Shown here: positions 8,754 to 63,314 of the stretch, in pieces
How the letters are laid out: each line of letters opens with the position of its first letter
Position numbering within the stretch: position 1 is the stretch's first letter
Assembly (NCBI GenBank): GCA_017467585.1
Contig: JAFUSR010000004.1
Location: 600,620-664,619, forward strand
DNA length: 64,000 nucleotides
Source of the DNA: Clostridia bacterium
GTDB taxonomy: Bacteria > Bacillota > Clostridia > Christensenellales > UBA1242
Direction of reading: 5' to 3'
Notes under the pieces: generated by a model
What the model saw: the letters and a program-made list of their open reading frames with translations, nothing else
The model's database searches: none
Told to the model about the DNA's origin: nothing
Translations under genes and position numbers: made by a program

Positions 8754-8776
8754 GGTATATTGTCAGACATAATACC
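8754..8776. repeat. Degenerate copy of the dispersed palindrome
   Basis: GGTATATTG-TCAGA-CATAATACC; two mismatches in the left arm; right flank matches the copies at 51343 and 63292. Confidence 0.75.
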
Positions 8777-8796
8777 CCAGAAAATCTGGCGAAAGC

Positions 8797-9468
8797 CTAC
8801 TTCTTGAGCAGGTCTGGTCTTTTTTGTTCGGTTAATCTTTTCGACTCTTTTTTTCTCCACTCGTCAACCTTTTTATGGTCTCCACTAACTAAAACTTCTG
8901 GAACTTCATGCCCCATAAAGTTTTGTGGACGAGTATATTGCGGATATTCTAACATATTATTAGAAAAAGTTTCATCTTCTGCACTCTCACTTTTTCCAAG
9001 AACTCCAGGAACAAACCTCGCAACGCAGTCAGTCAACACCATTGCAGGAAGTTCTCCCCCAGTCAAAACATAATCTCCAATGCTAATTTCTTCATCGATA
9101 AGCATGTCAATTATTCGCTGGTCAACACCTTCGTAGTGGCCACAGAGTAAAATTAAGTGCTCATAGTTTGACAATTCTTTAACAGTTGCCTGACTGAGAG
9201 TTTTTCCTTTTGGAGACATATATACTTTGTGTGCCTTTTCATATCCTTCAATTGATGTCATAGCATCATAAATTGGCTGTGGTGTCATAAGCATTCCAAC
9301 ACCACCACCAAATGGATAGTCATCACACTTTTTATGTTTATCTTTTGTGTAATCTCTAATGTCTATAACGTTAATTGTCAAGGCATGTTTGTCTTGAGCT
9401 TTGCCAAGCAAACTTGTTTTAAGCGGAACAAACATCTCAGGAAAAAGTGTCAAAATATCAATCTTCAT
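8797..9468 (-). CDS. trmD: tRNA (guanine37-N1)-methyltransferase
   Basis: DDYPFGGGVGM, CGHYEGVDQR, SIGDYVLTGGE, LEYPQYTRP. Confidence 0.98.
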   Translation of the reverse strand: MKIDILTLFPEMFVPLKTSLLGKAQDKHALTINVIDIRDYTKDKHKKCDDYPFGGGVGMLMTPQPIYDAMTSIEGYEKAHKVYMSPKGKTLSQATVKELSNYEHLILLCGHYEGVDQRIIDMLIDEEISIGDYVLTGGELPAMVLTDCVARFVPGVLGKSESAEDETFSNNMLEYPQYTRPQNFMGHEVPEVLVSGDHKKVDEWRKKESKRLTEQKRPDLLKK

Positions 9469-9958
9469 AATCTACTGCCACCTCTCCATAAATTTTTTCA
9501 TCAAAAATAATTTTTGAGTCTTCAACAGAAACAATCAATCCCTGTTTGTGACTCGCCATAATAAAATGTTTTGGAACAACCGACTTAATTAAAAACACAT
9601 CAGCACTTCCAAAGTTTAAAACTTCAACAATTTTGCCCAGTTCTTTGCCGTCTGTCAAGCAAACTTGCTTGTCAACCAAGTCAGCAACCAAAAACTTGCC
9701 CTTAGGAACTTCAATGGAATTTTTGTCAACACAAATAATTTTATTTCTAAAGTTTTCAGCTTCATTTCTCGAATTTATGCAGTCTAACTTTAGCGCAACA
9801 CCACCACCAACATTATAAGACTTTTCAATTTTAACTGGTTTTCCTTCAATAAAAACAGTTTTGTTTGAATAGTCAAAGTCAGAGACAAAAAGTTGAACCT
9901 TAATGTCTCCCTTAATACCTTGCGGTTTGATTATTTTTGCTATTTCAAAAGTTTCCAT
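9458..9958 (-). CDS. rimM: Ribosome maturation factor RimM
   Basis: AKIIKPQGIKGDIKV, PRC-barrel C-terminus, rimM-trmD synteny. Confidence 0.92.
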   Translation of the reverse strand: METFEIAKIIKPQGIKGDIKVQLFVSDFDYSNKTVFIEGKPVKIEKSYNVGGGVALKLDCINSRNEAENFRNKIICVDKNSIEVPKGKFLVADLVDKQVCLTDGKELGKIVEVLNFGSADVFLIKSVVPKHFIMASHKQGLIVSVEDSKIIFDEKIYGEVAVDYED

Positions 9959-10015
9959 CAATATTTCCTTTTTTCTTATTATAAACAATGACAAAATTTA
10001 TTGCAAGAAAATAAC

Positions 10016-10037
10016 AAAAAACCACCAAAATTGGTGG
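10016..10037 (-). terminator. Probable intrinsic terminator after khpA
   Basis: CCACCA/TGGTGG stem with T-run. Confidence 0.6.
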
Positions 10038-10046
10038 CTAAAAAAT

Positions 10047-10283
10047 CTATTTTTTATCAGTAAACTTAATGTTTACTCGTTTGCCTTGTTTGCGTGCGCT
10101 TGTTCTTGCAACAGTTCTGATTGAGTTTGCAACTCTGCCGCTCTTGCCAATAATTTTTCCAAAATCTGCTTCAGAAACTCTAACAAGAACATTGATTTCT
10201 TTTCCTTCGTCAGAAAGTTCAACAACAACTGCATTTTGATCTTCAACAAGGCTTTTAACGATATATTCAACTAATTCTTTCAT
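10047..10283 (-). CDS. khpA: KH-domain RNA-binding protein KhpA/YlqC
   Basis: GKIIGKSGRVANSIRT (GxxG), downstream of rpsP. Confidence 0.93.
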   Translation of the reverse strand: MKELVEYIVKSLVEDQNAVVVELSDEGKEINVLVRVSEADFGKIIGKSGRVANSIRTVARTSARKQGKRVNIKFTDKK

Positions 10284-10304
10284 ATTATTTACCCCTTAGT
10301 TGAA

Positions 10305-10562
10305 CTATTTTGCCTTTTTGCCTTCAATAACGCCACTCTTTTTAAGAAAAGCCTTAACTGTGTCTGTTGGTTGAGCACCATTAGCAATCCATTTTTTTGC
10401 AAGGTCTGCATCAATTTTAACTTCTTCTGGATTTGCAAGTGGATTGTAAGTTCCAAGTTGTTCAAGATACTCTCCATCTCTAGCTTTTCTAGAATCAGTA
10501 ACTACAACACGATAAAATGGTGTTTTCTTTGATCCAAGACGAGTCAATCTAATTTTTAACAT
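10305..10562 (-). CDS. rpsP: 30S ribosomal protein S16
   Basis: [21 protein letters not shown]. Confidence 0.99.
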
Positions 10563-10621
10563 TTGTTTTTCTCCTTTTTATTATTTTTATATATCATACA
10601 CGGCAGCAGCCGAAATATGCA

Positions 10622-11944
10622 CTAAAATCTTCTGCCAAACATTTTGGCAAGTTTGCCGTTGTTGGCGTTTTTCATGAGCATCTTTGTTTGCTCATATTGC
10701 TTCAAAAGCGAATTAACCTCTTGAATTGTCGAGGCAGAGCCAGCAGCAATACGCTTGCGCCTGCTTCCGTTGATAATTTCAGGGTTTTGACGCTCTTTTG
10801 TTGTCATTGAGCGAATTATTGCTTTAAACTTATCAATTTTCTTTTCATCAACGTCAGCAGGGTTAAATTTGCCGGCCATTCCAGGAACCATAGAGAGCAA
10901 GTCGGCAATGTTTCCCATTTTTCCTATTTGCTCAAACTGCATCAAAAAGTCTTCAAGCGTAAATTGATTTTTTTTGAGACGTTCTTCGAGTTTTGCCATT
11001 TCTTTTTGGTCAACAGCTTCTTGTGCCTTTTCAATCAGGGTTAAAACATCGCCCATGCCAAGAATTCTCGAAGCCATGCGGTCTGGATAAAATGGCTCAA
11101 TGTCACCAATTTTTTCTCCAATTCCGCAAAATTTGATAGGTTTTCCAGTAACAGCTTTAATCGAAAGCGCCGCACCACCACGTGTGTCGCCATCAAGTTT
11201 GGTTAAAACAACGCCAGAAATATCCAGTTGTTTGTCAAACTCTGTGGCAACATTAACAGCCTCTTGACCAGTCATGCTGTCAACAACAAGCAAAATTTCT
11301 GTTGGTTTCACCGTCTTTTTGATGTCAGAGAGTTCCTTCATAAGTTCGCTAGAAATTTGAAGGCGTCCAGCAGTATCTAAAATAACTGTGTCACAGCCAA
11401 TTTTTTTAGCATGGCGAACAGCTTCTTCTGCAATTTTAACCGGGCTAATTGTTCCCTTTTCAAAGAATTCAACGCCTGCGTTTTTCGCACCGATTCGAAG
11501 TTGTTCAATAGCGGCAGGACGATAAATGTCACACGCGACCAAAAGTGGCTTTTTGCCTTGCTTTTTAAGACTAAACCCGAGCTTGGCGCACATTGTAGTC
11601 TTTCCTGCACCTTGAAGACCACACATCAAGATGATTGTTGGTGGATTTGGGCTTACTGCAAGTTTAGAATTCTCGCTGCCCATAAGGCTGATGAGTTCTT
11701 CATTAACAATTTTAATAACTTGCTGACCAGGAGACAAACTTTCTAAAACTTTTTCGCCAACCGCTTTTTCACTAACCTTTGCAATAAAGTTTTTTGCAAC
11801 CAAAAAGTTAACATCGGCTTCTAAGAGCGCAACACGAACTTCTCTCATTGCTTCTTTTATTTCAAGTTCAGTGAGTTTTCCGCGCTTAGTTAGCTTTGAA
11901 AAAATATGATTAAGTTTTTCACCCAAACTTCCAAATAAAGCCAA
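10622..11944 (-). CDS. ffh: Signal recognition particle protein (TTG start)
   Basis: GLQGAGKTT, DTAGR, TKLD, Met-rich M domain. Confidence 0.98.
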   Translation of the reverse strand: MALFGSLGEKLNHIFSKLTKRGKLTELEIKEAMREVRVALLEADVNFLVAKNFIAKVSEKAVGEKVLESLSPGQQVIKIVNEELISLMGSENSKLAVSPNPPTIILMCGLQGAGKTTMCAKLGFSLKKQGKKPLLVACDIYRPAAIEQLRIGAKNAGVEFFEKGTISPVKIAEEAVRHAKKIGCDTVILDTAGRLQISSELMKELSDIKKTVKPTEILLVVDSMTGQEAVNVATEFDKQLDISGVVLTKLDGDTRGGAALSIKAVTGKPIKFCGIGEKIGDIEPFYPDRMASRILGMGDVLTLIEKAQEAVDQKEMAKLEERLKKNQFTLEDFLMQFEQIGKMGNIADLLSMVPGMAGKFNPADVDEKKIDKFKAIIRSMTTKERQNPEIINGSRRKRIAAGSASTIQEVNSLLKQYEQTKMLMKNANNGKLAKMFGRRF

Positions 11945-11956
11945 AATATATCTCCC

Positions 11957-12295
11957 TTATAGTTTTGTGATGATTTTGTGAATTTGTGCTGAAATTTTTG
12001 CCTGCAAAGCATCAGTTGTGTCGAGCGTTGATTGCAGCTTTAGTAAATCGGCCTTTGTTTGATTATACTTTTCGACAAAGCCACACTTTTTTTCAGTTTC
12101 ATATAATTGTTGTTCTGCTTTTGCAAGCGAATCGTGAACAGCTTGTCTCGTGATTTTTAACTCTTCAGCAATTTCAAACAGCGACATGTCGTTTTGATAA
12201 TACATTTCAAAAATCTGCTGCTGTTTTTCTGTTAAAAGATTGCCATAAAAATCAGCCAAAATACAAAGTTCAATTTTTTTGTTTAAATCAATCAT
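11957..12295 (-). CDS. ylxM: YlxM/UPF0122 SRP-associated HTH protein
   Basis: DFYGNLLTEKQ, DMSLFEIAEELKITRQAVHD; upstream of ffh. Confidence 0.93.
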   Translation of the reverse strand: MIDLNKKIELCILADFYGNLLTEKQQQIFEMYYQNDMSLFEIAEELKITRQAVHDSLAKAEQQLYETEKKCGFVEKYNQTKADLLKLQSTLDTTDALQAKISAQIHKIITKL

Positions 12296-12403
12296 ATTTC
12301 ACTTTATCTGTAAAGCATTTTTACTTTACACCTGTAATATTACACTAATATTTGCTAATTGTCAACATTCTTAACAAAAAAAATGGCCAAAATAAGACCA
12401 TTT

Positions 12404-13303
12404 TTATTCAAATATGCTGTCAACAAATTCTTTTGCGTTAAAATCCAAAAGGTCGTCAGCAGTTTCGCCAACACCAACAAACCTAATTGCCATGTCATAG
12501 TTTTGAGCAAGCGCAAAGACAAAGCCACCCTTGCTTGTTCCGTCGAGTTTGGTAACTGCAATATCCGTGAGTCCAATCGCCTCATCAAACAATTCAACTT
12601 GACTTAGCGCATTTTGGCCTGTTGTTCCATCAACAACAATCATCTTGTGATATTCAGCCTCAGGGTATTGTTTTTGTATAATTCTGTCCATCTTTTTGAG
12701 TTCTTCCATAAGGTTAACCTTGTTATGCAAGCGCCCCGCTGTGTCGATAATGACAACGTCGTTTTTGCGTGCTTTTGCACTAGCCAAGCCATCAAACACA
12801 ACACTTGCAGGGTCTGCGCCCTCTGTGCTTCCAACAATTTTAACCTTGGCGCGCTTTGCCCAAACCTCAAGCTGCTCACCAGCAGCAGCTCTAAATGTGT
12901 CGCCAGCAACAACAAGTGGGTTTTTGCCAGCTTTCGCATAGCGCTCTGCAATTTTGCCAATTGTAGTGGTTTTTCCAACACCGTTAACTCCAACAACCAT
13001 AATAACACAAGGATAAGAAAAGTCTTTTGCCTGAGCCTTGGTGAGAATATCAACCAAAACCTCTTTCAAAAGATTTCTGCAGGCATCTGTTGTTTTAACT
13101 TTATTCTTTTTAACAAGTGCCTTCAGGTTTTCCAAAATTTCTTCTGTTGTGCTCGCACCAACATCACTAGAAACCAAAACAAATTCAAGTTCATCATAAA
13201 AGTCTTGGTCAATGTCGTTGCCAGTAAAGGCATATTTAAGCTTTTCACCAAATGATTTTTTGGTGTTTTTCATTCCAGCAATAAGTCTAGATAAAAATCC
13301 CAT
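12404..13303 (-). CDS. ftsY: SRP receptor FtsY
   Basis: GVNGVGKTTT, DTFRAAA, DTAGRLH, TKLDG. Confidence 0.98.
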   Translation of the reverse strand: MGFLSRLIAGMKNTKKSFGEKLKYAFTGNDIDQDFYDELEFVLVSSDVGASTTEEILENLKALVKKNKVKTTDACRNLLKEVLVDILTKAQAKDFSYPCVIMVVGVNGVGKTTTIGKIAERYAKAGKNPLVVAGDTFRAAAGEQLEVWAKRAKVKIVGSTEGADPASVVFDGLASAKARKNDVVIIDTAGRLHNKVNLMEELKKMDRIIQKQYPEAEYHKMIVVDGTTGQNALSQVELFDEAIGLTDIAVTKLDGTSKGGFVFALAQNYDMAIRFVGVGETADDLLDFNAKEFVDSIFE

Positions 13304-13311
13304 AAATTCTC

Positions 13312-16300
13312 CTAAACAGCGTTATCAATTCTAATGGCATCACTAAGTTTAACAGAAACCATTTTAGAAACACCCTTTTCTTCCATGGTAACACCATACA
13401 AGCAATCAGCAAGTTCCATGGTTGGCTTTCTGTGAGTGATAACAATAAACTGAGTGTCTTTGCTATAATTTTTAAGATATCTCGCAAATCTATCTACGTT
13501 TGCATCATCAAATGCCGCTTCAATTTCGTCAAGAACGCAGAATGGCATTGGCTTTAACTTTAAAATTGCAAACAAAATCGCAACAGCAGTAAGAGCCTTT
13601 TCTCCACCAGACAACAGCGAAATGTTGCTAAGTTTTTTGCCAGGTGGCTCGGCAATGATATCAATTCCACACTCAAGCAAGTTTGATTCGTCTTGGAGCA
13701 AAAGTTCTGCCTTTCCGCCACCAAACAACTCTTTGAAGACTTTTTGGAAGTTTAAATTAATTTGTTCAAATTGGGTTTTGAACTTGTCTTCCATTTGTGT
13801 TGTGAGTTCCTTGATAATTTTAAGCAGGTCATCTTCGGCTTTAGAAAGGTCATCACGCTGACCCGCAAGGTCGTTATACCTTGCTGTAACTGTTTCAAGT
13901 TCTTCAATAGCGTTAACGTTAACATAGCCAAGTGACTGAATTTTCTTTTTAAAGCTTGCACTTTCAGCAAGAGCCTCTTTCAAATCAAACACCTCAAGTC
14001 TAAAGGCTAGCGCATCAGAATAAGTCATTCCATATTCTTCCCACACACGCTCTTGCATTGTTTCAACTTCAGCGTCTATCTGACTTAGCCTCATTTCTTC
14101 TTTAGCACGCTTCTCGGTTATTCTTTGAATTTCGCCAGAGAGTTGCATTTTGAGTTCATCTGCCTTGCTCATTGCAAGTTGCTTAGACTGTTTAAATTCA
14201 TCAAGCCCAGCAAGCTTGTTGCGAATTTCTTTAATTTGTTCCATGCTAGCCTTATAATTTTCGTCACCGGTAACATTATCTAGCATAGCAGAAAGTTCAC
14301 TAAGCTGAGTTGCGTTCTTTTGAAAAGCAAGCCTATTTTCACGATAGCGATAATCACTAACAGCAATATCAGAAGAAAGTTTGTCTATTTCAGCCGTCAA
14401 ACTTTCAATTAAACTTGCCTTAGATGTCTGTTTAATTTTAAGTTCTGTCAAACTGTCATAAAGTTCTTCTCTTTGCTTTCTGAGCATATCAAACTTTGTG
14501 TCGGCCTTTTTCTTGTTTTCGTTAGCCTCGCTGGTCTTAGCAATTGTTGCACCAACTTTAGCACTAGCAAGTTCAAGTGCATCACTAACAGCAACAATTC
14601 TGTCCATAAGAGCATCTTTTGCATACTCGGTTTGTCTAAATTCGTGTTCTAGTTCTGAAACTTGGTCATCGAGTTTGTCCGCCTCATCACGAGAGCGAAT
14701 AAGTTCAACTTCGATGTCGTGCACCTTTCCGTTAACAACAATAAGTTCATCATTGTTTGCTTGTTCTTTTGCCTTATATTCATCAAGTTTTTTAGTCTCG
14801 GCAGAAATTTCGTCAGCAAGCAACTTAAGTTCTTTGTTAAGGTCAGCAATTTCACGCTCACGACCAATCAGGTTGCTAGACGACTCTTTGCGGCTACCAC
14901 CAGAAATGCTACCCTGTGGGTTGATTACGTCGCCATCGAGCGTTACAACTTTTGCAGAATATCTAGTTGCTCGGGAAAGCGCAATTGCGTTGTCCATGTT
15001 GTCAACAATAACAGTTGAGCCAAGCAAACTCTTAAACACAGAATCAAGTTGTCTGTCATAAGAAATCAATTCGCTTGCAACACCAAGAACACCACGACTG
15101 TTTAAGTGGTCTTCAACAATGTCAGGAAGTCTGCGTTCTTTCATGCTAGAAATTGGCAAAAATGTTGCACGTCCAAACTTGTGGTCTTTCAAAAAGTTTA
15201 CAATATATTTTGCGTCGTCTTCGTCCTTGGTTACAATGTTTTGAACACTAGCACCAAGCGCCATTTCAATTGCAACTTCTAAATTGGCCGGAACTTTCAT
15301 AAGTTTTGCAACAACACCAACAATCATTTTGCTCAGTGTCGGGTTGCTCTTGGCTTGGTCTAAAAGACGCTTTACAGGAACAACAAAACCCTCGTTTTCT
15401 TCTGCCATTTCTTGAAGAACCTTGGCACGCGACATCTTTGTGTGATATTCAACCTTTTTGTCGTCAAGAGAAATCGACAAGTTGTTTCTCTTTTCGGCAA
15501 ATGCATTTGCGTCGTCTAAAAGGTTGGTCTGTTTAATTTTTGTGTCTGACAGTTTGTTAGACAGTTCAGCAATATCTTTTTGCTTTTGATCGAGTTTAGA
15601 CTGCAACGAAGAAATGTTATCTTTAAGTTCAGATAATTTTGAGTCGGTTTCAGTCTGTTTTTCTGCAAGCATGTTTTTTTCTGCTTGCAAGCTCGAAAGT
15701 GCCGATTTGTCGTCACCCAAGCTTTGAAGCGCGCTATAAATCTCTTCGCCAGACTCTTTTGTAGACTTTTCTCCCGCAGTAAGCCTGTCAACAATGTCTA
15801 AATATTCTTGATTAACCTTTTCGATTTGACGATCAAGTTCGCTGAGCATTGTTTTGTTTGTCTCTAGTTCAGTTGTTTTGTCTGTTATTGCTCTCTTTAG
15901 ATTTTCTTTTAAAATTTCGTCTTGCTTAATTTGAGAGTCAAGCCTAGAATTTTGCTCGGTTAAGTTGTTAATTTTTTCTTGAACAAGTTTTGCTTCACCA
16001 TTTTGTTTTTCAAGTTCAACGTTTAAATTCAAGAGTTCTTCACGAAGTTCTTCAATTGTCTGGTCTAGTTTGCTGATGCTCTCAAAACTTTGGTTATATT
16101 CGCTAACTGCATTGTCAAAATCTGCCTGCTTAACAGCAAGTTCTTGGTCAATTCCCTCAATTTTTAAACTGATTTCTTGTTTGTTGCTATTAGCGTGGTC
16201 ATATTGATAAACATAAATATTAAGTTCAAGATTTTTTAATTTTTCTTTATATTCCAAAAACTTTTTGGCGCTTTCAGACTGTTTGGTGAGGGGTCCTATT

Positions 16301-18581: not shown

Positions 18582-18742
18582 AAATAAACTCCTAAACGAG
18601 GATATTATATAATAAATATAATATTTTGACTAGCAAATTGAGCCACTTTTTGATTTTTTAATTGTCAAAATAATAAATTATTTTGCCCCTAAAACTTAAC
18701 AAAAAAGAACTTGTAACAAGCGTTTTGACCAGATATTTCCGT

Positions 18743-18764
18743 TGTTATGTCTGTCATAACACCC
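18743..18764. repeat. Dispersed palindrome copy
   Basis: TGTTATG-TCTGT-CATAACACCC, intergenic between rpmF and plsX. Confidence 0.9.
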
Positions 18765-18777
18765 TATTTTGTGCACA

Positions 18778-18810
18778 AAAAAACAACCCCTTTTGGGGTT
18801 GCTCTTTTTT
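18778..18810 (-). terminator. Intrinsic terminator after rpmF
   Basis: CAACCCC-TTTT-GGGGTTG stem with A and T runs on either side. Confidence 0.8.
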
Positions 18811-23523: not shown

Positions 23524-24534
23524 ATGACAACAAATAAAATATTAACCAAAAACAACAAAATTTTTAAGAACATAGAGCTGTTGCTATTGTCACTTTCAAC
23601 AATTTTTGTTTTGATAGTCATTTTAAGCAACCCAAAACGATATAACACAAGTGTTTTGCAGGGATTGACAATGTTTTTAACGTGTGTTTTACCAGGGCTT
23701 TTTCCTTTTATGTTTTTCACTAAACTACTTTCTAGTTTTGGCCTGATAGAAAAGCTATCATCAAGGCTAGAAAAACCAACAAGGCTCCTTTTCAACACCA
23801 GCCCGATTTCTAGCTATGTGCTTTTAATAAGCGCAATCAGTGGCTATCCTGTTGGCGCAAAACTTATCAGCGACCTATATTTGTCAAACTCAATCTCGCA
23901 GTCCGACGCAAAAAAGATGTGCTCTTTTTGCACAACAAGCGGACCACTATTTGTCATTGGAACAGTTGGTGCCGTTATGTTTGGAAACATCACTGTTGGA
24001 ATTGTTATTTATATATCGCATATTCTTGCGAGTGTTATGTGTGGCATAACACTTAGAGGAAAGTCGCAACAAAGCCAGAAAATTTCTAGCGTTGTGCCCC
24101 TCCACAGACCAGACAATTTGTTGTCTAAAACCATGCTCGACACAGTTCAAAACATTTTGCTTGTTGGTGGATATATCACCATTTTCTTTTTGATTTCAGA
24201 CATAATTTTTGACACAAAAATTGCGACGGTTGTTGCCTATCCGCTAGAAAAGTTTTTATCTCTCTTTGGCATAAGCGGTCTATCAAATGGAATTGTTGGC
24301 GGACTATTGGAAGTAACCCGCGGCTGCAAGATTCTTTCTGCCTTTACTGGCATTTGGCCAATTTGTTTTGCAGCAAGCCTAATTTCGTTTGGTGGGCTGA
24401 GCATAACAATTCAATCTATGGCCTACCTTTCTCGTTGCAAAATAAAAGCACGCTACTTCGTGTTTGTGAAGTGCGTGCATGCAATTTTTACTTTTTTTAT
24501 TTGCCTAGGATTGTGCAAGCTTTTTATTGTTTAA
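23524..24534 (+). CDS. ylbJ: Sporulation integral membrane protein YlbJ
   Basis: VLPGLFPFM, SAISGYPVGAK, FCTTSGPLFVIGTVG, GLLEVTRG, FGGLSI..Q. Confidence 0.9.
   Translation: MTTNKILTKNNKIFKNIELLLLSLSTIFVLIVILSNPKRYNTSVLQGLTMFLTCVLPGLFPFMFFTKLLSSFGLIEKLSSRLEKPTRLLFNTSPISSYVLLISAISGYPVGAKLISDLYLSNSISQSDAKKMCSFCTTSGPLFVIGTVGAVMFGNITVGIVIYISHILASVMCGITLRGKSQQSQKISSVVPLHRPDNLLSKTMLDTVQNILLVGGYITIFFLISDIIFDTKIATVVAYPLEKFLSLFGISGLSNGIVGGLLEVTRGCKILSAFTGIWPICFAASLISFGGLSITIQSMAYLSRCKIKARYFVFVKCVHAIFTFFICLGLCKLFIV
24031..24053. repeat. Dispersed palindrome copy inside the ylbJ coding sequence
   Basis: AGTGTTATG-TGTGG-CATAACACT, encoding S-V-M-C-G-I-T-L. Confidence 0.75.
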
Positions 24535-26606: not shown

Positions 26607-26637
26607 AAAAAAAGACGGCCACGCCGTCTGTTTTTTT
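26607..26637. terminator. Intrinsic terminator after metG
   Basis: AGACGGC-CAC-GCCGTCT with A and T runs on both sides. Confidence 0.8.
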
Positions 26638-28198: not shown

Positions 28199-28249
28199 TT
28201 CTTCTTCCTTTAATTATCGGCAAAAAGTCGATTTTTGTCAGGTTTTTCG

Positions 28250-28272
28250 GCTATTATGTCAGACATAATAGC
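28250..28272. repeat. Dispersed palindrome copy, fully symmetric variant
   Basis: GCTATTATGTC-A-GACATAATAGC. Confidence 0.88.
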
Positions 28273-28276
28273 ATGA

Positions 28277-28592: not shown

Positions 28593-29321
28593 TTAAATTA
28601 TTCCACCATCAACACCTACAACACTTGCGGTCATGTAGCTTGCTTCATCACTTGCTAAGAAATAAACAACTGATGCAACGTCTTGCGGCGTTCCTATTCT
28701 TCCAAGAGCTGTCTCATTTTCTAACTCTTTCATGTCGTCGATTGTGATATTTTTTGTCATGTCTGTCAAAATAACACCAGGGCAAACACAATTAACATTT
28801 ATGTTTGAGTAGCCAACCTCTCTGGCAACAGCTTTTGTAAAAGCAATTATTCCACCTTTGCTCGCGCTATAAACAGTTTCCATGCTGCCACCAGCAACTC
28901 CCCACATGCTCGACACATTAACAATTTTGCCATATTGACGAGATATCATGCTAGGCAGTGCCTCTTTTGTTACATAAATTGTTCCAAGCAAATTAGTGAG
29001 CAACAGATTCTCGATTTCACTTGTCTTTGTGTCGATTAATAGTTTTGTGAGTGCCGTTCCTGCGTTATTGACCAAAACATCAATGTAGCCAAAAATCTCG
29101 AGTGTTTGTTTAACCAAGAGTTTTGCCTGCACAGGGTCGCCAACATCAGCGCGAATGGCAACAGCTCTAACCCCATTTCTTGTGAGCTCATCAGCAAGAT
29201 TTTCAGCTTTTTGCTGACTAGAAACATAGTTTATAACAACATTATAGCCACCACTTGCAAATTTTCTTGCAATGGCTTCACCTATTCCCCTTGATGCTCC
29301 TGTGATTAAAACCGTTTTCAT
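28593..29321 (-). CDS. SDR oxidoreductase; more similar to YmfI/EfpI (EF-P 5-aminopentanone reductase) than to FabG
   Basis: TGASRGIG, NNAG, NVSSMWG, YSASK; the SSxWG segment is YmfI-like. Confidence 0.7.
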   Translation of the reverse strand: MKTVLITGASRGIGEAIARKFASGGYNVVINYVSSQQKAENLADELTRNGVRAVAIRADVGDPVQAKLLVKQTLEIFGYIDVLVNNAGTALTKLLIDTKTSEIENLLLTNLLGTIYVTKEALPSMISRQYGKIVNVSSMWGVAGGSMETVYSASKGGIIAFTKAVAREVGYSNINVNCVCPGVILTDMTKNITIDDMKELENETALGRIGTPQDVASVVYFLASDEASYMTASVVGVDGGII

Positions 29322-34619: not shown

Positions 34620-34653
34620 AAAAAAGAGCGACAGATGTCGCTCTTTTGTTTTT
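34620..34653. terminator. Bidirectional terminator after asnS
   Basis: AAAAGAGCGAC-AGAT-GTCGCTCTTTT. Confidence 0.8.
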
Positions 34654-37134: not shown

Positions 37135-37248
37135 AAAATTCTCCTAAACTTATAATTTATTATATAATAAAGCTCGCGGGCAAATCAACCACTTTTAAAC
37201 TCTTGATAAAAAATAAATAAAAAAAGTTACTGCTTTAGCAGTAAATAA

Positions 37249-37273
37249 GGGTGTTATGTCTGTCATAACACCC
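37249..37273. repeat. Dispersed palindrome copy, 10-bp arms
   Basis: GGGTGTTATG-TCTGT-CATAACACCC. Confidence 0.92.
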
Positions 37274-37288
37274 GAAAAACATTGTAAT

Positions 37289-51310: not shown

Positions 51311-51339
51311 AAAAAAACAGCGGATTTTCCGCTGTTTTT
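51311..51339. terminator. Bidirectional terminator between the DUF11 gene and ftsW/spoVE
   Basis: AAAAACAGCGG-ATTTT-CCGCTGTTTTT. Confidence 0.8.
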
Positions 51340-51342
51340 GTT

Positions 51343-51365
51343 TGTTATGTCTGTCATAACACCCC
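51343..51365. repeat. Dispersed palindrome copy
   Basis: TGTTATG-TCTGT-CATAACACCCC. Confidence 0.9.
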
Positions 51366-51405
51366 ACAAAATCTGGCTAAAACCAACAAAACTTTATTTG
51401 CTTGG

Positions 51406-54883: not shown

Positions 54884-56314
54884 TTAAGCCTGTTTTAAAC
54901 TTTCTTTAATTATTTGTTTGTCGCTATATTTCAATTTGGCGCCCTGAACCTCTAAATAAGGCTCCGCACCCTTGCCCGCAACAACCACAACTTCGTTTTT
55001 TGTTGCGGCAGAAATTGTCTCACGAATTGCTTGACCTCTGTCTAAAATTAACTGCCATTTTTTCTTGCAAAAACCAGAAATGATATCCTGCGCAATTTTG
55101 TAGTTGTCTTCATAGCGAGGGTTGTCAGTTGTTATTACAACTTTATCGGCGTATTTTTCGGCAATTGTGCCCATGATGGCACGCTTGGTTGTGTCGCGAT
55201 TTCCGCCACAGCCAAACACGCACGTGATTTTGGCTTTTGGCTTTGAATTTCTGACAGCAACAAGCAACTTCTCAAGACCATCTGGTGTGTGAGCATAGTC
55301 TAAAACAACCATGCAATTTCCAAAAAACGTTTGATATCTGCCCTCAACACCACCAAAAGACTCAAGTTGCTTTATTATTTCTGAATCTGTCATCATGGCG
55401 CGCCTGCAAATAGCAATTGCAACAACCATGTTTTGCAGATTGAAATCACCCATCAGCGGCGATGCACAAGAAAAGGTCTTTCCTTCTGCGTGATAATCAA
55501 AAGTTTGACCATATTTAGTATGTTTTACATTGTCTACAAATATGTCTGCTTTTTTGTTTGTTGAGCAACGAACCACGTTTTTTGCCATGGTGGCAATTTT
55601 TTCGCCAAAACTAGTGTCTGTGCAGACCACTGCACTGTTGTAGTTTTTTTCTTTAAAAATCTGCGCCTTTGCATCGAAATAATTTTGCATGTTCTCAAAA
55701 AAATCTAAGTGGTCTTCAGACAGGTTTGTAAATCCTATTATGTCTGGCATAACACCCCATAATTTCTGATAATAAATGGCATGGGCGGAGATTTCCATCA
55801 CAACATATTGAACCCCACTTTTTGCCATTTGAGACAATAGGTTTTGAAAAATTATTGGGTCGGGAGTTGTCATGTTGGTTTGAATTTTTTTATCCGCAAA
55901 TTCTGCTCCATTTGTGCCAATTGTTGCCACTTTATATTTGCAAGACAAAATGTGACTGACCAAACTCACAGTGGTTGTCTTTCCGTTTGTTCCGGTAACC
56001 CCAATAATTTTTAATTTTTCCGCTGGTCTATCAAAATAGTTTGCAGCAATCAAACTCATGGCTTTTCTTGCGTCTGGCACTATAATCTGCGTAACTTTTA
56101 TGCCACTTATTCCCTCTTCAGTGACAATTGCTTTTGCTCCACGCTTTATTGCGTCGCTAGCATAGTTAGTTCCAAGATTTGTCTTTCCTTTTAAACAAAA
56201 GAACAAACTATCTTTTTTGCATTCGTCAGATCTGACGCACAAACTTTTTATGTCTAAATTCTTTTTTCCAATAATTTTGCAATCTATGCCACTTGTTAAT
56301 TCTTTTAGTTTCAT
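54884..56314 (-). CDS. murE: UDP-MurNAc-dipeptide ligase MurE; DNPR motif indicates meso-DAP type
   Basis: TGTNGKTT, TTPDP, FTNLSEDHLDF, DYAHTPDG, TDNPR. Confidence 0.96.
   Translation of the reverse strand: MKLKELTSGIDCKIIGKKNLDIKSLCVRSDECKKDSLFFCLKGKTNLGTNYASDAIKRGAKAIVTEEGISGIKVTQIIVPDARKAMSLIAANYFDRPAEKLKIIGVTGTNGKTTTVSLVSHILSCKYKVATIGTNGAEFADKKIQTNMTTPDPIIFQNLLSQMAKSGVQYVVMEISAHAIYYQKLWGVMPDIIGFTNLSEDHLDFFENMQNYFDAKAQIFKEKNYNSAVVCTDTSFGEKIATMAKNVVRCSTNKKADIFVDNVKHTKYGQTFDYHAEGKTFSCASPLMGDFNLQNMVVAIAICRRAMMTDSEIIKQLESFGGVEGRYQTFFGNCMVVLDYAHTPDGLEKLLVAVRNSKPKAKITCVFGCGGNRDTTKRAIMGTIAEKYADKVVITTDNPRYEDNYKIAQDIISGFCKKKWQLILDRGQAIRETISAATKNEVVVVAGKGAEPYLEVQGAKLKYSDKQIIKESLKQA
55736..55758. 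repeat. Dispersed palindrome copy inside the murE coding sequence
   Basis: TATTATG-TCTGG-CATAACACCCC; encodes W-G-V-M-P-D-I-I on the minus strand. Confidence 0.8.
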
Positions 56315-56327
56315 GTTTATATTCTCC

Positions 56328-58241: not shown

Positions 58242-58295
58242 AAAAAAATCCCTCAAACTTAGTTTAAGTATATTCGTTTGAGGGATAATAAATGA
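58242..58295 (-). promoter_or_regulatory. 11-bp hairpin covering the spoVD RBS, with a sigma-E-like promoter whose -10 lies in the loop
   Basis: ATCCCTCAAAC-N17-GTTTGAGGGAT then a T-run and ATG; TCATTTA-N14-AATATACT. Confidence 0.6.
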
Positions 58296-58297
58296 TT

Positions 58298-58900
58298 TTA
58301 ATTAAATAATCCAGCTAGAAAGTTGCAAAGGCTATCGAACCAGTTTGTTTCGATTTGTGCTGTTGGTTTTGCAACTTCGGTAACTCCTTGAAGGGCTGTT
58401 CCTGTTGCCTGTTCAGTGAGTCCTTGCTCTGTTGCACGAGTCAAAACATCATTTTCGAGACTCTCATATTGTTGTTGAAGAGAATTTACAGTTTGTTGTT
58501 GTTCATAAACAACTTGTTGCTTTGCAGCAAGCGTTGCATTGAGTGAGCCAAGTGTTACGGCATTTCCAATCATAAAGGCAACGAGTGCGCAAATGCAAAT
58601 CGCAATAACGCTGATTAAAATTTTGCCGTGAGCGTTTAAATGAACTTTAACAGGGGTTTCTGGATGTTGCTCAATTGCGCGGTCAATGGTTAGCATGTCA
58701 ACTTTGCGTTGACCTTCGACTTTGATTGATTGAACATCAGACTGATAATGCTTTTGGACACTGATTGTTGAAGTATCTTCAAAATCTAAGTTGCTAAAAA
58801 TTGGTCTGCGATATTGTGTATCGGCATTTTCTCTGCTTGAAAATATTCCTCTTCTAACAGTGGTTTGTGTAGTTACTCTTTCTTGTGTCTCTGTTGCCAT
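58298..58900 (-). CDS. FtsL-like bitopic coiled-coil protein with a long N-terminal region
   Basis: Single TM plus coiled coil, located between rsmH and the PBP gene. Confidence 0.65.
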   Translation of the reverse strand: MATETQERVTTQTTVRRGIFSSRENADTQYRRPIFSNLDFEDTSTISVQKHYQSDVQSIKVEGQRKVDMLTIDRAIEQHPETPVKVHLNAHGKILISVIAICICALVAFMIGNAVTLGSLNATLAAKQQVVYEQQQTVNSLQQQYESLENDVLTRATEQGLTEQATGTALQGVTEVAKPTAQIETNWFDSLCNFLAGLFN

Positions 58901-58920
58901 AAGCGTTGCCCCCTTTATTT

Positions 58921-59850
58921 TTATAATTTTTCTATAACTCTTAGCTTGGCACTTGAACTTCTGCTGTTTTGTTTTAGTTCATTTTCGCCAGCTGTTATCA
59001 TTTTTCCAATGAGTTTTGCTTCTGCCCTGTGACCACAAACGCAAATTGGCAGGTTTGGTGGACAGATGCAATCTGTTGAAAGGTCTCGAAATGTGTGTTT
59101 GACTATGCGGTCTTCTAGGCTGTGAAAGCTGATGACTGCAAGTCTTCCGCCCTTTTTGAGACTGTGTGTAGCATCAACCAAAAATTGCCCCAGTTCGTCT
59201 AGTTCGCCGTTGACTTCAATTCTAATTGCTTGAAATGTGCGCTGAACATTTGATGAACCATCGTTACCACGATATCTCGGAACACTTGAAAGAATTATTT
59301 CTTTAAGTTCCTGAGTGGTTTCAATTGGTTTAGCCTTTCTTACTTTGTCGATTTTGTTGGCTATGCTGGTTGCAAATTTCTCTTCGCCATAGTCTTTGAT
59401 GATTTGTCTAAGTTTTTCGGCACTATAGGTGTTAACGACTTCGTAAGCAGAAAGTTTTTGTGATTTGTCCATTCTCATATCGAGTTTGGCATCGGCCCTG
59501 TAACTGAATCCGCGTTCGCTGTTGTCTAGCTGATAACTTGAAACGCCCAGGTCTACCAAAATTCCATCTACCTTTTCTATTTTGTTGTCTTTTAAAATTT
59601 GAACCAGGTTTTTGAAATTGTCGTGAACGTAAGTTACGCGGTCACCAAATTCGCTGAGTCTTTTTTTGCTTGCAGCAAGTGCTTCGGCGTCTCTGTCTAT
59701 TCCTACAAGCTTTGAGCCGTTTGTTCTAGACAAGATGTGAAAGCTGTGGCCAGCTCCACCTAGTGTGCAGTCCACATAAATTCCATTATCTTTGAGATTG
59801 AGCCCTTGCATGCACTCTTCGAGAAGCACGGGAACATGTTTGAATTCCAT
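58921..59850 (-). CDS. rsmH: 16S rRNA m4C1402 methyltransferase
   Basis: HVPVLL, DCTLGGAGHS, DLGVSSYQLD, FQAIRIEVN, ISFHSLEDRIVK. Confidence 0.98.
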   Translation of the reverse strand: MEFKHVPVLLEECMQGLNLKDNGIYVDCTLGGAGHSFHILSRTNGSKLVGIDRDAEALAASKKRLSEFGDRVTYVHDNFKNLVQILKDNKIEKVDGILVDLGVSSYQLDNSERGFSYRADAKLDMRMDKSQKLSAYEVVNTYSAEKLRQIIKDYGEEKFATSIANKIDKVRKAKPIETTQELKEIILSSVPRYRGNDGSSNVQRTFQAIRIEVNGELDELGQFLVDATHSLKKGGRLAVISFHSLEDRIVKHTFRDLSTDCICPPNLPICVCGHRAEAKLIGKMITAGENELKQNSRSSSAKLRVIEKL

Positions 59851-60273
59851 CTATACCCCAAGCCCTGCGAGCGCTTTGCTGCTTTCGGTGAAATCGTCAC
59901 CAGAATATGCGTTCCATTCTTCTTCTGACCAAATTTCCACTCTGCTTCCTGAACCAATAAAGACAATGTTCTTTGTGATTTTTGCATATTCACGAAGTTC
60001 TTTCGCAACAAGAATTCTTCCTTGTTTGTCTTCTTCGGTTTCAAAAGCTGATGACAGAACCATTCGAACAGGTTTTTGAACTTCAGCATCAAAGATAGGA
60101 AGACTTGTTAGTTTTTGATAAACTTCTGAGAACTTTTCTTTGCTAAATGCATACAAACAGTTGTTGGTGCCTTTAGTGATGATGAAGTTCTCGCCAAGTT
60201 CATCTTTAAACTTGGCTGGCATACGCATGCGGCACTTTTCATCTATTTGGTGACGATATGTTCCAATTAGCAT
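59851..60273 (-). CDS. mraZ: Transcriptional regulator MraZ
   Basis: IDEKCRMRMPAKF, DKQGRIL, RVEIWS. Confidence 0.95.
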   Translation of the reverse strand: MLIGTYRHQIDEKCRMRMPAKFKDELGENFIITKGTNNCLYAFSKEKFSEVYQKLTSLPIFDAEVQKPVRMVLSSAFETEEDKQGRILVAKELREYAKITKNIVFIGSGSRVEIWSEEEWNAYSGDDFTESSKALAGLGV

Positions 60274-60306
60274 ATGCTTTTACCCCCTTCTCATCTTTGT
60301 AAATAA

Positions 60307-60354
60307 ATTATAATTCATTTAATTTTGAATTTGCAACCACTTTTGACCACTTTT
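60307..60354 (-). promoter_or_regulatory. mraZ sigma-A promoter with MraZ-binding direct repeats
   Basis: TTGCAA-N18-TATAAT; AAAAGTGGT twice at 10-bp period abutting the -35. Confidence 0.75.
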
Positions 60355-60414
60355 TAATAAAAAAATTAATATTTTGCAAAAAATTTTGCCATTTTTATCA
60401 CTTTTTTACATTTT

Positions 60415-60430
60415 TAGAACGCTTGTTCTA
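60415..60430. promoter_or_regulatory. LexA (Cheo)-type box
   Basis: Minus strand TAGAAC-AAGC-GTTCTA fits GAAC-RNRY-GTTC. Confidence 0.55.
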
Positions 60431-60527
60431 TAATTTTATCGATAGTTTGTTCTAAAAAATTGATATACCCCTATGGGCATGTATTTGTTTAAAACCCAAA
60501 CAACTTTTTCTAATATTTTTTATAAAT

Positions 60528-60555
60528 AAAAAAGGTGGTGCAAAATTGCACCACC
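60528..60555 (-). terminator. Intrinsic terminator after the hypothetical membrane-protein pair
   Basis: GGTGGTGCA/TGCACCACC stem with a T-run on the minus strand. Confidence 0.75.
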
Positions 60556-60578
60556 CGGCTATTTAAAAATTTTTGATT

Positions 60579-61007
60579 CTATTTTGCGTTTGCCATGCCG
60601 TTATATGCCATCGACAAAATAGCAACTGCTCCAACAACGCAGAGAATAAACACCACAAGAGCTATCCAAGAGATTGCTCTTCTGTTTAGTTTTAATTGTT
60701 TGATTGTGCGCGAAAGAGCAAAAAAGAACAATTCTATTGAAACAAGAACAAGACCAATTCCTAGCATAATCAAAATTATGTTTAAAAATATGCCAAGGTT
60801 GCGCGTGAATCCAACATAAAGCGAAATTGCACCACCAACACTAAACACAGCAAACAAAACTGATTGCAAAATTGCTCTCCAACCAAAGTATTTTGAAAAT
60901 GGTCTCAATTCTGCATCGTTTTTTATATTATTATATATTTCTCTATCTTCTCCAATTTTTGCAATAAAATTCAAAAAATGCAAAAGCCCATTCATTTTAT
61001 CTGCCAT
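60579..61007 (-). CDS. Hypothetical membrane protein, ~3 TM
   Basis: Hydrophobic segments; GGAGGT RBS. Confidence 0.75.
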   Translation of the reverse strand: MADKMNGLLHFLNFIAKIGEDREIYNNIKNDAELRPFSKYFGWRAILQSVLFAVFSVGGAISLYVGFTRNLGIFLNIILIMLGIGLVLVSIELFFFALSRTIKQLKLNRRAISWIALVVFILCVVGAVAILSMAYNGMANAK

Positions 61008-61010
61008 TTT

Positions 61011-61829
61011 TTACCTCCACATACTTCTGCTAATATTATCTCTTACCTCTTTTTTGTGTTTAACGCTTTTGATAGCATCAACATGAGCTCTATAATTGTC
61101 TTGCTCTTCCTGAGGTAAAGTTTTAAACCACTCTTTGGCATGAATCTTATCGCGAACAAGTTTGACAAGCATAGTAATAAACCCTGCTACAATAACAAGA
61201 GCAACCCCCAAGATTATGCCAATTGTGAGTGCTGAGTTATCTTTTATGATAAACAATAGCATAATTGCTATTGCTGCTGTCGCTATTATGACAACAACCG
61301 AACTTAAAATAAATCTGTTGATTGTTAAACTATAGGCCATTTCTTCTTTTGTTGCAGTTGAGAGTTGAAGTGATTTAACCCCATTATAAACAAGATAGCC
61401 TGCAATAACACCAACAATTCCTAAAATGACAGCCACCGCAATAAAGCCCATAAACGCTCCAAAGCCAACCAAACTTGCCCTTATGTTTAAAACATCCCAT
61501 GATTCTGCTGAACCTGAATCAATTGAAACACCAAGAACTGGTGGCAACATTGTTATTGCACAAAACAAAAATATTGCAAAGGCAACTGCTGCAAGCGCAA
61601 ACATTATTCCCGCAAACACAACATATGGGGTTCTTTTCTTATCCACCTTGTGAAGCTCATGATCTAGATATGGCACTTCAACTTTATACATTTTTCCATA
61701 AAGTCTAGCCTTTTGAACTTCTTTATAAGACAATTTTGAATAACTTTCTTTTTCAAATTTATCTTTTGGTTCATCAGGTGCATTCTGTTGCTCAACAGGA
61801 TGATTGTTTTGCTCAGTTAATTCTTCCAT
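61011..61829 (-). CDS. Hypothetical membrane protein, ~4 TM
   Basis: Acidic N-terminus, four hydrophobic segments; AGGAGG RBS. Confidence 0.78.
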   Translation of the reverse strand: MEELTEQNNHPVEQQNAPDEPKDKFEKESYSKLSYKEVQKARLYGKMYKVEVPYLDHELHKVDKKRTPYVVFAGIMFALAAVAFAIFLFCAITMLPPVLGVSIDSGSAESWDVLNIRASLVGFGAFMGFIAVAVILGIVGVIAGYLVYNGVKSLQLSTATKEEMAYSLTINRFILSSVVVIIATAAIAIMLLFIIKDNSALTIGIILGVALVIVAGFITMLVKLVRDKIHAKEWFKTLPQEEQDNYRAHVDAIKSVKHKKEVRDNISRSMWR

Positions 61830-61892
61830 AATCTGCCCTCCTAACTAATTTAAATATATAATATTTATATACATGTGGTCAATTAAATTGCA

Positions 61893-62600
61893 TTAGTTTT
61901 CATAAATCAAAACCGGGGTGTTATTAATGTGATCAGTTGCAGTAAAATAATAGACAACCCCATTGCGTTCAAGAACTTTTTCCATGTTAACGACTTTTCC
62001 ATGAAGGTGTCCAAAAATCACCTTGTCTACTTTGTATTCTTCTAAAAGTTTAGTGAAATTGCTATCTTCTTTTGTCATGTTATATGGAGGATAGTGAATC
62101 ATGCAAATAACTCTGTCGCCTGTCTTTCTTTGCTTCTGCATGTCTGCAAGTGTTAGTTTGAGTCTTTCGGTTTCGCGCTTATAGAGTTTGTCATCTTCTT
62201 TTTCGAGCTGTTTGCCGTGTTCTGGAACAGTCCAACCACGAGTTCCACAAACAAGAGTTTTTTCGTCTATTCTAACACAATCGTTTTGAATTGCCTGAAT
62301 TGAAGGAGGCAAAATTGAGCGCACTGCGCTTATGCTCTTCCACCAATATTCGTGATTTCCTTTAATCATAATTTTTTTGCCAGGGAGCTTATCTATCCAC
62401 TCAAGGTCTGGAATTGCTTCTTCGAGTTTCATTCCCCAACTTATGTCTCCACCAAGCAAAACATAGTCGTCTTCCGCAACAAGTTCTCTCCAGTGCTCGC
62501 TGATTTTTTCTGTATGATTTGGCCAAGCCCCACCAAATATATCCATTGGTTTGTCGCAGGCAAAACTTAAATGTAAATCGCTAATCGCCCAAATTTTCAT
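61893..62600 (-). CDS. Calcineurin-like metallophosphoesterase
   Basis: ISDLHLS, GGDISWG, KGNHEYWW, HYPP, FGHLHG. Confidence 0.92.
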   Translation of the reverse strand: MKIWAISDLHLSFACDKPMDIFGGAWPNHTEKISEHWRELVAEDDYVLLGGDISWGMKLEEAIPDLEWIDKLPGKKIMIKGNHEYWWKSISAVRSILPPSIQAIQNDCVRIDEKTLVCGTRGWTVPEHGKQLEKEDDKLYKRETERLKLTLADMQKQRKTGDRVICMIHYPPYNMTKEDSNFTKLLEEYKVDKVIFGHLHGKVVNMEKVLERNGVVYYFTATDHINNTPVLIYEN

Positions 62601-63213
62601 TATCATTGCCCTCCACAAACTGCCATATTCTATCGATAAGCGGCTCCTTGCCGATTTTTTTCTCACTGCTTGTCAAAAACACATTATCAATTCCCACTTT
62701 AAACTTTGCGGCAATTGAAACTTTGTTTCGCGCTGCTTCTGCACGAGAAACTTTGTCTAACTTTGTTGCAACAATTGTTGTGGCAATATTGCACCTAAAC
62801 AAATAATCAAACATTTGCAAATCTTGAATTGTTGGCTCGTGGCGAATGTCAACTAGCAAGATAACGGCCTTTAAGTTAGTTGTTTTGTTTAAGTAGCCCT
62901 CAATCATATCTTTCCAACGGTTCTGTTCGGCGTGGCCAGCCTTTGCAAAACCATAACCAGGAAGATCAACGAGCATAAACTTTTTTTCGTCATTTTGGTC
63001 TTTTGCAACAAACTCAAAAAAGTTAACTAGGCGCGTGCGACCCGGTGTGCTGCTGGTTTTTGCAAGTTTTTTGTTATCTGCTAGCAAATTAATAAAGCTT
63101 GACTTGCCAACATTGCTTCTTCCCACAATCGCAATTTCTGGCATGTTAAAACCTGCATAGCCCGAAGCGTCTGCATAAGATAACACAAATTTTGAACTCT
63201 TTATATTTGCCAT
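62581..63213 (-). CDS. engB: GTP-binding protein YihA/EngB/YsxC
   Basis: GRSNVGKSS, SSTPGRT, DLPGYG, TKLD. Confidence 0.96.
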   Translation of the reverse strand: MANIKSSKFVLSYADASGYAGFNMPEIAIVGRSNVGKSSFINLLADNKKLAKTSSTPGRTRLVNFFEFVAKDQNDEKKFMLVDLPGYGFAKAGHAEQNRWKDMIEGYLNKTTNLKAVILLVDIRHEPTIQDLQMFDYLFRCNIATTIVATKLDKVSRAEAARNKVSIAAKFKVGIDNVFLTSSEKKIGKEPLIDRIWQFVEGNDNENLGD

Positions 63214-63288
63214 ATATAAATATATTAACAAATATGCAAGCAAAAATCAACAAAATAAAAAACAAGCAAATTCTGAGCAAAAAAATAA

Positions 63289-63314
63289 GGGTGTTATGTC
63301 TATCATAACACCCC
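63289..63314. repeat. Dispersed palindrome copy, 10-bp arms
   Basis: GGGTGTTATG-TCTAT-CATAACACCCC. Confidence 0.9.

Follow-up and report, generated by a model that had tools for sequence, protein, structure and literature searches.

Several families of short sites organise bacterial chromosomes. The parS site of the ParB system is a 16-bp palindrome (TGTTNCACGTGNAACA) near the origin; the dif and XDS sites of the Xer system have 11-6-11 arms, with CATAA and TTATG facing the spacer, and lie in the terminus region; and the 13-bp matS sites (GTGACRNYGTCAC) lie on both sides of dif in genomes that encode MatP. Repeats of the REP/REPIN type are strictly extragenic, occur in high copy and carry a 5' GTAG-type tetranucleotide, and the associated RAYT gene is usually flanked by REPs. 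To our knowledge, no Firmicute organiser of the Ter domain comparable to MatP/matS has been described, and we know of no account of chromosome organisation in the reduced-genome uncultured Clostridia of the gut and rumen. Here we describe a family of palindromes, TRTTATG-N5-CATAAYA, found in 64,000 nt of DNA from a Clostridia bacterium. This whole stretch, hereafter the window, is C2:600620-664619 of genome G000, an assembly of 973 kb in 4 contigs that is 93% complete. We tentatively read the element as a clade-specific cis recognition site kept by selection, which would be read by a putative sequence-specific factor, probably a dimeric DNA-binding protein, and would mark a chromosome domain.

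The family differs from each of the described sites. Its 7-5-7 geometry and its position near the terminus separate it from parS, canonical copies of which (TGTTTCACGTGAAACA) lie elsewhere, at C2:35160-35238. Relative to dif/XDS the block order is inverted, to TTATG-N5-CATAA, and, judged on site sequence and position, the family departs from matS in having a different sequence and in keeping to one side of the skew switch. Nor does it represent a Noc site, and so the exclusion of parS, Noc and dif in an earlier reading of this DNA from its letters alone (the sequence-only reading) stands. Like parS, matS, NBS/Noc, XDS and RBM/RefZ, the family consists of near-perfect palindromes in 10-25 copies that are regional and found at orthologous places, and, again like them, it is tolerated in coding sequence and is independent of orientation and promoters. 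It is unlike them in having no sequence match to them and no known cognate protein, in its restriction to one side of the terminus, in its asymmetric copied tail, and in its terminator-like flanks. The inverted pairs of the DNA uptake sequences (DUS) of Neisseria and the uptake signal sequences (USS) of Haemophilus are read by a protein, often form terminator hairpins after genes, also occur within coding sequence without length change and show lineage "dialects", whereas here single half-sites, which an uptake motif would have in strong genome-wide excess, are not enriched, copy number is about 100-fold lower, and the copies cluster regionally.

An exact scan of the window gave seven matches to TRTTATG-N5-CATAAYA, at 18743, 24033, 28252, 37252, 51343, 55736 and 63292, compared to 0.00 in 100 dinucleotide-preserving shuffles of the window, which served as the chance baseline. 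This count, the coordinates, and the conclusion that the motif is not due to chance agree with the sequence-only reading, as does a degenerate copy at 8756 (TATATTG TCAGA CATAATA), which has two mismatches and carries the family flank CCCCAGAAAATCTGGCGAAAGCC. Other two-mismatch matches, at 28755, 35096 and 42715, are background (about one is expected per window), and the profile search recovers none of them. The spacers of the eight copies are TCTGT (three), TCTGG, TCTAT, TGTGG and TCAGA (two); the earlier count of TCTGN in six of eight is correct if either strand is counted, but not in one orientation alone. The conserved core is a 21-bp palindrome, G-TRTTATG-N5-CATAAYA-C, and across 48 copies from at least 10 genomes each column of its arms is either invariant or conserved to 90% or more. 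Because single half-sites are not enriched (GTGTTATG, 66 versus 56 expected; GTATTATG, 31 versus 28 expected), we consider the inverted pair to be the unit. The palindrome of 19-25 bp first described is a real core, but the full unit exceeds it: it spans about 45-50 nt, has no overall symmetry, and is found in either orientation. In G000 it reads (A-run)TAAGGG-TGTTATG-TCTGN-CATAACA-CCCC-AT-AAAA-YCTGGCGAAAAC-NC-ACTTTTT. Within the window's genus, 10 of 11 intergenic copies, and the copy in murE as well, are extended on one side by CCCCAT-W4-YCTRG and then by a tail specific to the species.

Two of the window copies lie in frame within genes. Our comparisons covered five genomes of the window's genus (including G000, G001, G003 and G004), one of a neighbouring genus (G015), and further motif-carrying metagenome-assembled genomes (MAGs) of Clostridia (G051-G058). 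Copy 7 (55733-55775, plus strand) consists of the palindrome and CCCCATAATTTCTGA and is read in frame in the Mur_ligase_M domain of murE. The MurE proteins of the carriers G000, G001 and G015 read G-V-M-(P/S/T)-D-I-I at this place, whereas those of 26 other genera read roughly G-I-K-F-D/E-V-G, and the comparison shows that the site adds no length. Its codons are GGT GTT ATG NCN GAC ATA ATA, of which only the middle one varies freely (CCA, TCA or ACT) between fixed arms. The palindrome is forcing MurE residues off the family consensus. Copy 3 (24032-24052), the palindrome only (G-TGTTATG-TGTGG-CATAACA-C), is in frame in a ylbJ-like membrane-protein gene, for which Pfam gives just a weak, sub-threshold Gate match; the same site is present in G001, G003 and G015, making it common to four species in two genera. 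Other genes carry in-frame copies in G051, G053, G054 and G056, and some of these are orthologous, for example between G051 and G053/G054. Rickettsia palindromic elements (RPE) also occur inside and between genes of small genomes, but those are insertions of 100-150 bp that add residues, while murE, the only in-frame copy that was checked against outgroups, adds none. Insertion of a mobile element would not readily account for such in-frame sites, which point to selection on the palindrome itself.

Conservation in sister genomes was assessed by matching the proteins on either side of about 28 copies, from G001 and G003, to the G000 proteome. Orthologous sites are common among these copies, even though the flanking proteins are only 50-80% identical. 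These sites include trmD|rbgA (all three species), L32|plsX, 99aa|metG, both sides of the formate-tetrahydrofolate ligase gene (FTHFS), GH18|spoIVA, and the in-frame sites in ylbJ and murE, and nearly all of them map to C2:570-703 kb of G000. Sites have also been added over time: in the 24 sampled genera that keep the trmD-rbgA order, the two genes overlap or lie at most ~110 nt apart without a palindrome, and the copy is missing in G015.

The whole G000 genome holds 10 exact matches. A profile of the 49-nt unit recovered 12 full copies in G000 plus the palindrome-only ylbJ copy, and a second profile, built from 48 copies, gave 13 strong copies and a few decayed ones. Twelve of the 13 strong copies lie within 94 kb (C2:609-703 kb, P = 8e-12), so that the chromosome-wide distribution supposed by the sequence-only reading does not hold; the thirteenth is at C2:334 kb, and weaker copies reach C2:543.8-545.7 kb. 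Since the GC skew switches sign at about C2:540-545 kb and genes converge there, we take this region as the terminus. The array occupies the terminus-proximal third of one replication arm, and in this genus the sites spread over roughly 160 kb of it. Within it, the 12 sites are spaced at a mean of 8.5 kb with a coefficient of variation (CV) of 0.48, more even than random (P = 0.007). Even spacing was also seen on contig C6 of G003 (8 sites, CV 0.26, P = 0.0008) and contig C39 of G054 (CV 0.24, P = 0.014), and was not found on three other contigs tested. Far from the array and outside the window, three exact canonical parS sites (TGTTTCACGTGAAACA) stand in tandem, 39 bp apart, at C2:35160-35253 and probably mark the origin-proximal ParB loading site.

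The exact motif is present at 6-15 copies per genome in all five genomes of the genus and at 0-2 in 20 other genera of the family. When a 25-nt version was searched against one genome per species (185,579 species), matches were almost confined to small uncultured Clostridia MAGs from gut or rumen. A one-mismatch scan gave 3-22 copies per genome in the carriers, namely the window's genus, G015 and G051-G058, with genomes of about 1 Mb; the reversed motif pattern, our specificity control, gave near zero (two matches, in G003 only). Outside the window's genus and that of G015, the carrier MAGs are CAMRVD, CAYTHL, CAMOCH, JAFWBI, CABUZJ, JAZRNH, JAZOTD, CAJKVX, JAZRDJ, SVIK01 and JAFSXW. By the identities of their Xer-like recombinase, most carriers are the closest relatives of G000, with only G052 and G057 falling within the range of non-carriers, and on this basis a single origin of the element, in a sub-clade, is probable. 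All carriers share the arms G-TRTTATG/CATAAYA-C, also G051-G058, in which the loop differs. The 5-nt loop is lineage-specific: TCWGA in the window's genus, ACAAA in G054, and TTTYG in G051 and G053.

The array lies in core chromosome, among trmD, rbgA, plsX, ackA, smc, metG, der, spoIIP, clpX, engB, FTHFS, spoIVA and dinB together with genes of the dcw cluster (a penicillin-binding protein gene, murE, mraY and ftsW/spoVE). Intergenic copies lie in short gaps, at -4 to 50 nt past the upstream gene's stop codon. Between C2:540 and 706 kb, the 10 intergenic copies fall in seven co-directional, three convergent and no divergent gaps, with 109, 17 and 17 such gaps available, respectively. The orientation of the asymmetric unit is independent of transcription (about 10:8). 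In the window, copy 1 (8751-8797, plus strand; arms TATATTG/CATAATA, extension CCCCAGAAAATCTGGCGAAAGCC) takes up the gap from the trmD stop to the rbgA start and is present there in G001 and G003. Copy 2 (18720-18766, minus strand) lies between rpmF, encoding L32, and plsX, with orthologous copies in G001 and G003; an unrelated conventional terminator is found 22 nt away, at 18784-18801. Copy 4 (28232-28275, minus strand) lies between a conserved 99-aa open reading frame and metG, has an orthologous copy in G003, and is flagged as terminator-like on the plus strand. Copy 5 (37247-37287, plus strand) directly follows the spoIIP stop, and between it and der is a separate conventional minus-strand terminator (37227-37244). 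Copy 6 (51341-51384, plus strand) lies 19 nt past the ftsW/spoVE stop in a convergent gap and 3 nt from an unrelated bidirectional terminator at 51313-51339. Copy 8 (63287-63333, plus strand) lies 6 nt past the clpX stop, and its minus strand forms a good intrinsic terminator, with stem GGGGTGTTATG/CATAACACCC followed by TTATTTTTTT.

A terminator scan flagged three window copies as terminator-like. The features of an intrinsic terminator, a G+C-based stem-loop with a U-tract behind it where a transcription unit ends, are present at 37252, 63292 and C2:703408 and in part at 28252 and C2:674870, and absent from the in-frame copies, the trmD|rbgA copy and the copies that adjoin separate terminators. 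Because conventional terminators stand 3-25 nt from the copies at 18743, 37252 and 51343, and because a T-run in the sense direction follows only 3-4 of the 11 intergenic G000 copies, the copies do not appear to be needed as terminators. Perfect bidirectional terminators with A-run/T-run flanks also occur in the window at 26613-26629, 34622-34647 and 51313-51339; their stems are unrelated to the family, and ordinary terminators in this DNA are therefore diverse in sequence.

The invariant arms, the retention at orthologous places, the costly in-frame copies, the independence of orientation and promoters, and the regional, even spacing lead us to tentatively favor a recognition site. A protein-binding site of the organisation type, one of the two possibilities raised by the sequence-only reading, thus remains the best single reading once its chromosome-wide scope is dropped. 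At about one per 5-10 kb, the sites would mark or structure a chromosome domain, as parS, matS, XDS or gyrase-binding BIMEs do, rather than control promoters. In a genome that is ~90% coding, intergenic sites would be parked in short 3' gaps after stops, where the palindrome would do no harm or might double as a terminator or adjoin one; in-gene sites would be written in through the choice of codons and residues; and new intergenic sites would arise by copying of a unit of ~50-60 nt. We infer that the putative protein reads the site, as duplex DNA, for chromosome organisation. It is more doubtful that these are its loading, anchoring or barrier sites over a terminus-proximal domain, that is, a Firmicute counterpart of matS/MatP or XDS/XerD. 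If the domain-organiser reading is true, the site would be important enough to be kept in murE and ylbJ at the cost of conserved residues. Taken together, the deep conservation, the regular regional array and the imposition on an essential cell-wall enzyme provide a concrete handle, in the form of a 21-bp bait and a phyletic pattern with which to search for a partner gene.

Several observations weigh against a protein recognition site. The murE site is degenerate in G003 (G-I-I-L-D-V-I) and lost in G004 (N-I-H-F-E-V-I), the copy at C2:570887 of G000 is a decayed remnant of one that is intact in G003, sites lie only on one side of the terminus as placed by the skew switch, and more distant carriers hold their sites at other loci. 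Evenness of spacing could in part reflect operon lengths, the loop varies freely between lineages, and no binding protein was supported among three candidates (a PadR-like protein, a HEPN orphan and an Xer-like recombinase). Most intergenic copies share ~25 nt past the palindrome, and even where loci are orthologous the consensus of this tail depends on the species (CTRGCRAAAAC in G000 and G001, CTRGSGTTGCGGC in G003). G003 in addition has sub-families, CAAGG..CCTTG and CATAGTA, and the trmD|rbgA element amounts to a gain of ~60 nt, as would be expected for a copied unit. The shared tails, the sub-families and the 60-nt gain show that the unit has been copied. Structure also counts on this side. 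A 13-bp stem is 78% paired over 48 copies, with a covariation score exceeding all 500 shuffles, although kinship among the copies inflates these statistics; the outer pairs of the stem switch from GC to AU; and at the R:Y pair (AU 18, GC 15, GU 10, AC 5) G:T wobbles are more frequent than A:C mismatches when the element's own strand is taken (13:5), compared to 10:8 relative to the sense strand. In G051, G053 and G054, most copies read AAAATAAGG-TGTTATG-N5-CATAACA-CCTTATTTT and resemble bidirectional terminators.

Some of these features are what would be expected of a REP-like hairpin repeat, a possible though rather unlikely explanation in which a palindromic unit is copied or homogenised (by gene conversion) by a putative structure-specific enzyme, settles in 3' gaps near terminators and, like REPINs, persists vertically; the host may profit in passing, through termination or through protected mRNA 3' ends. 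The shared asymmetric tail with its species-specific consensus at orthologous loci, the G003 sub-families, the lineage-specific loop (there are five identical ACAAA copies in G054), the 60-nt gain at trmD-rbgA, the larger number of sites in G003 than in G000, the decay at C2:570887, the stem covariation, and the location just past stops with none in divergent gaps all fit such a repeat. The family resembles the REP, BIME and REPIN elements of Escherichia and Pseudomonas in being made of short, lineage-specific hairpin palindromes, mostly 3' extragenic, with a family consensus and vertical persistence. Its spacing, roughly one per 10 kb, and the use of some copies as terminators are also reminiscent of REP/BIME, some of which are gyrase or IHF sites. 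It is unlike REP/REPIN in having no RAYT, no GTAG in the alignment, 7-22 copies rather than hundreds, a single region, and in-frame copies in essential genes. That low copy number, the even spacing, the lack of a Y1/RAYT or IS1595 transposase in the five genomes, the lack of a recurrent bracketed mobiliser, and the in-frame copies, which are orthologous, change no length and cost MurE residues, tell against a repeat of this kind; moreover, the oldest shared sites, those that the window's genus has in common with the genus of G015 (murE and ylbJ), are the in-frame ones. The REP/MITE alternative of the sequence-only reading is thus weakened by the in-frame copies and the orthologous retention, and keeps its force in the evidence for copying. 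If it is true, a REP-like family without RAYT would suggest a new mechanism of mobilisation or homogenisation, and a rare case of palindromic repeats entering genes without length change. Alternatively, the hairpin might act in transcripts, as a bidirectional terminator, a 3'-end stabiliser or a site at which an RNA-binding protein or RNase binds or processes the RNA, with the stem sequence conserved since the RNA factor reads it. Predicted hairpin energies of -6 to -25 kcal/mol, the three terminator-like window copies and those of G051, G053 and G054, the covariation and wobbles of the stem, and an asymmetric pair that reads G:U in the sense strand of murE from three species and of ylbJ from G015 are consistent with an RNA element. 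We nevertheless judge it improbable: orientation is unrelated to the sense strand, no more than 10 of 18 copies have wobbles compatible with the sense strand, some copies are within essential genes that are translated and would be damaged by a terminator, several copies have conventional terminators beside them, the other terminator stems of the window are unrelated, and regional clustering has no obvious rationale at the level of RNA.

It is very improbable that the palindromes are ordinary transcription-factor operators of a dispersed regulon, one version of which would have as regulator the PadR-like protein encoded at C2:541945-543876. The palindromic form is like that of the operators of dimeric regulators, the neighbours include several genes homologous to sporulation or cell-envelope genes (spoIIP, spoVE, spoIVA, ylbJ, murE and a GH18 gene), and a degenerate copy (GGGGTATTATGTCTGGCATAGATA) overlaps the PadR-like start codon. 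However, copies are found past the 3' ends of genes or within them, or have a terminator between them and the next gene, with none in the region's 17 divergent gaps; this placement, including the 0 of 10 intergenic copies in divergent gaps, bears out the sequence-only reading, which had thought a regulon operator unlikely. G001, G003 and G004 do not conserve the copy at the PadR-like start, most of the family has the PadR-like gene, motif-free genomes among them, and the ~34 nt conserved are far above what an operator needs. A site read by a DNA-binding protein for chromosome organisation remains the account that we tentatively prefer.

Searches for a partner or mobiliser were made in several ways. 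No Y1/RAYT transposase (PF01797) was found in any of the five genomes of the genus, while the same search was positive in six control genomes, and the IS1595 DDE transposase (PF12762) was likewise absent from all five. Among genes with copies on both sides, none recurs that would qualify as a mobiliser, and the resemblance to ISNwi1-group IS1595 ends that the sequence-only reading had noted is not supported as a lead. The aligned copies show no direct duplication flanking the unit, in agreement with that reading's failure to see a target-site duplication, and the unit consists of one hairpin with a one-sided tail rather than two terminal repeats. An integron-like cassette array is rejected, as the copies have mixed orientations and are separated by housekeeping genes that keep their synteny; a fork trap of the Ter/RTP type is rejected on orientations that are 7:4 on the one arm, not uniform. 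Against Rfam 15, only a tRNA matched in the window, and around copy 8 the best scores, also at permissive thresholds, were at most 26 bits versus cut-offs of at least 39. The motif had no plasmid match, its matches to viral contigs were at chance level, and a text search of the literature matched primers only.

The PadR-like protein, of 643 aa, has its PadR domain at the N terminus and membrane segments at the C terminus, with a long acidic linker in between. Only in G000 do the ribosome-binding site, start codon and first codons of its gene (GGGGTATTATGTCTGGCATAGATA) mimic the palindrome; we rejected the protein as the reader because the palindrome is absent there in G001, G003 and G004, and the likeness in G000 is largely made up of the ribosome-binding site and the M-S-G-I codons. 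An orphan with a HEPN motif (C2:162779-164572), considered as an RNase partner, has, besides the G000 protein, homologues in no more than G015 and G053 when 33 related genomes are searched, so that most carriers are without it. The Xer-like recombinase (C2:547339-548433) is single-copy and near-universal (31 of 33 genomes) and does not track the motif. Nothing like the family palindrome is present at C2:104900-106200, and the profile search found no copy nearby. The skew-switch region, C2:539880-552130, holds lexA, an RNase H gene, the membrane-anchored PadR-like protein, serS, the Xer-like recombinase, RNase Y and recA, and a weak dif-like sequence (ATATTCTATAATATAAATTTTGTCAAGT) lies on the minus strand at C2:540593.

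Several further features of individual copies were noted. The tails (window 8775-8797, 51362-51384, 63311-63350 and others) hold small A-loop hairpins with copy-specific stems, such as GGC-GAAA-GCC, GCG-AAAA-CGC, TGG-CTAAAA-CCA and CTG-GCGAAAA-CAG, which in G000 are usually followed by ACTTTTT; these may represent a second small hairpin belonging to the unit. On contig C20 of G003 (9994-10067), two family palindromes stand in tandem, 10 nt apart, with one common extension. In G051, a one-mismatch palindrome (TATTATGAATAATATAGCA; locus L153, contig C6, 728-746) overlaps a phosphofructokinase-like gene at its start codon; like the one at the PadR-like start, this is probably a chance near-match arising from spacer, ATG and AT-rich codons. 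Finally, a short-chain dehydrogenase gene (G000 C2:674918-675736) lies between a family copy and FTHFS and is not at that position in G001 or G003, which suggests that it was gained next to the copy.

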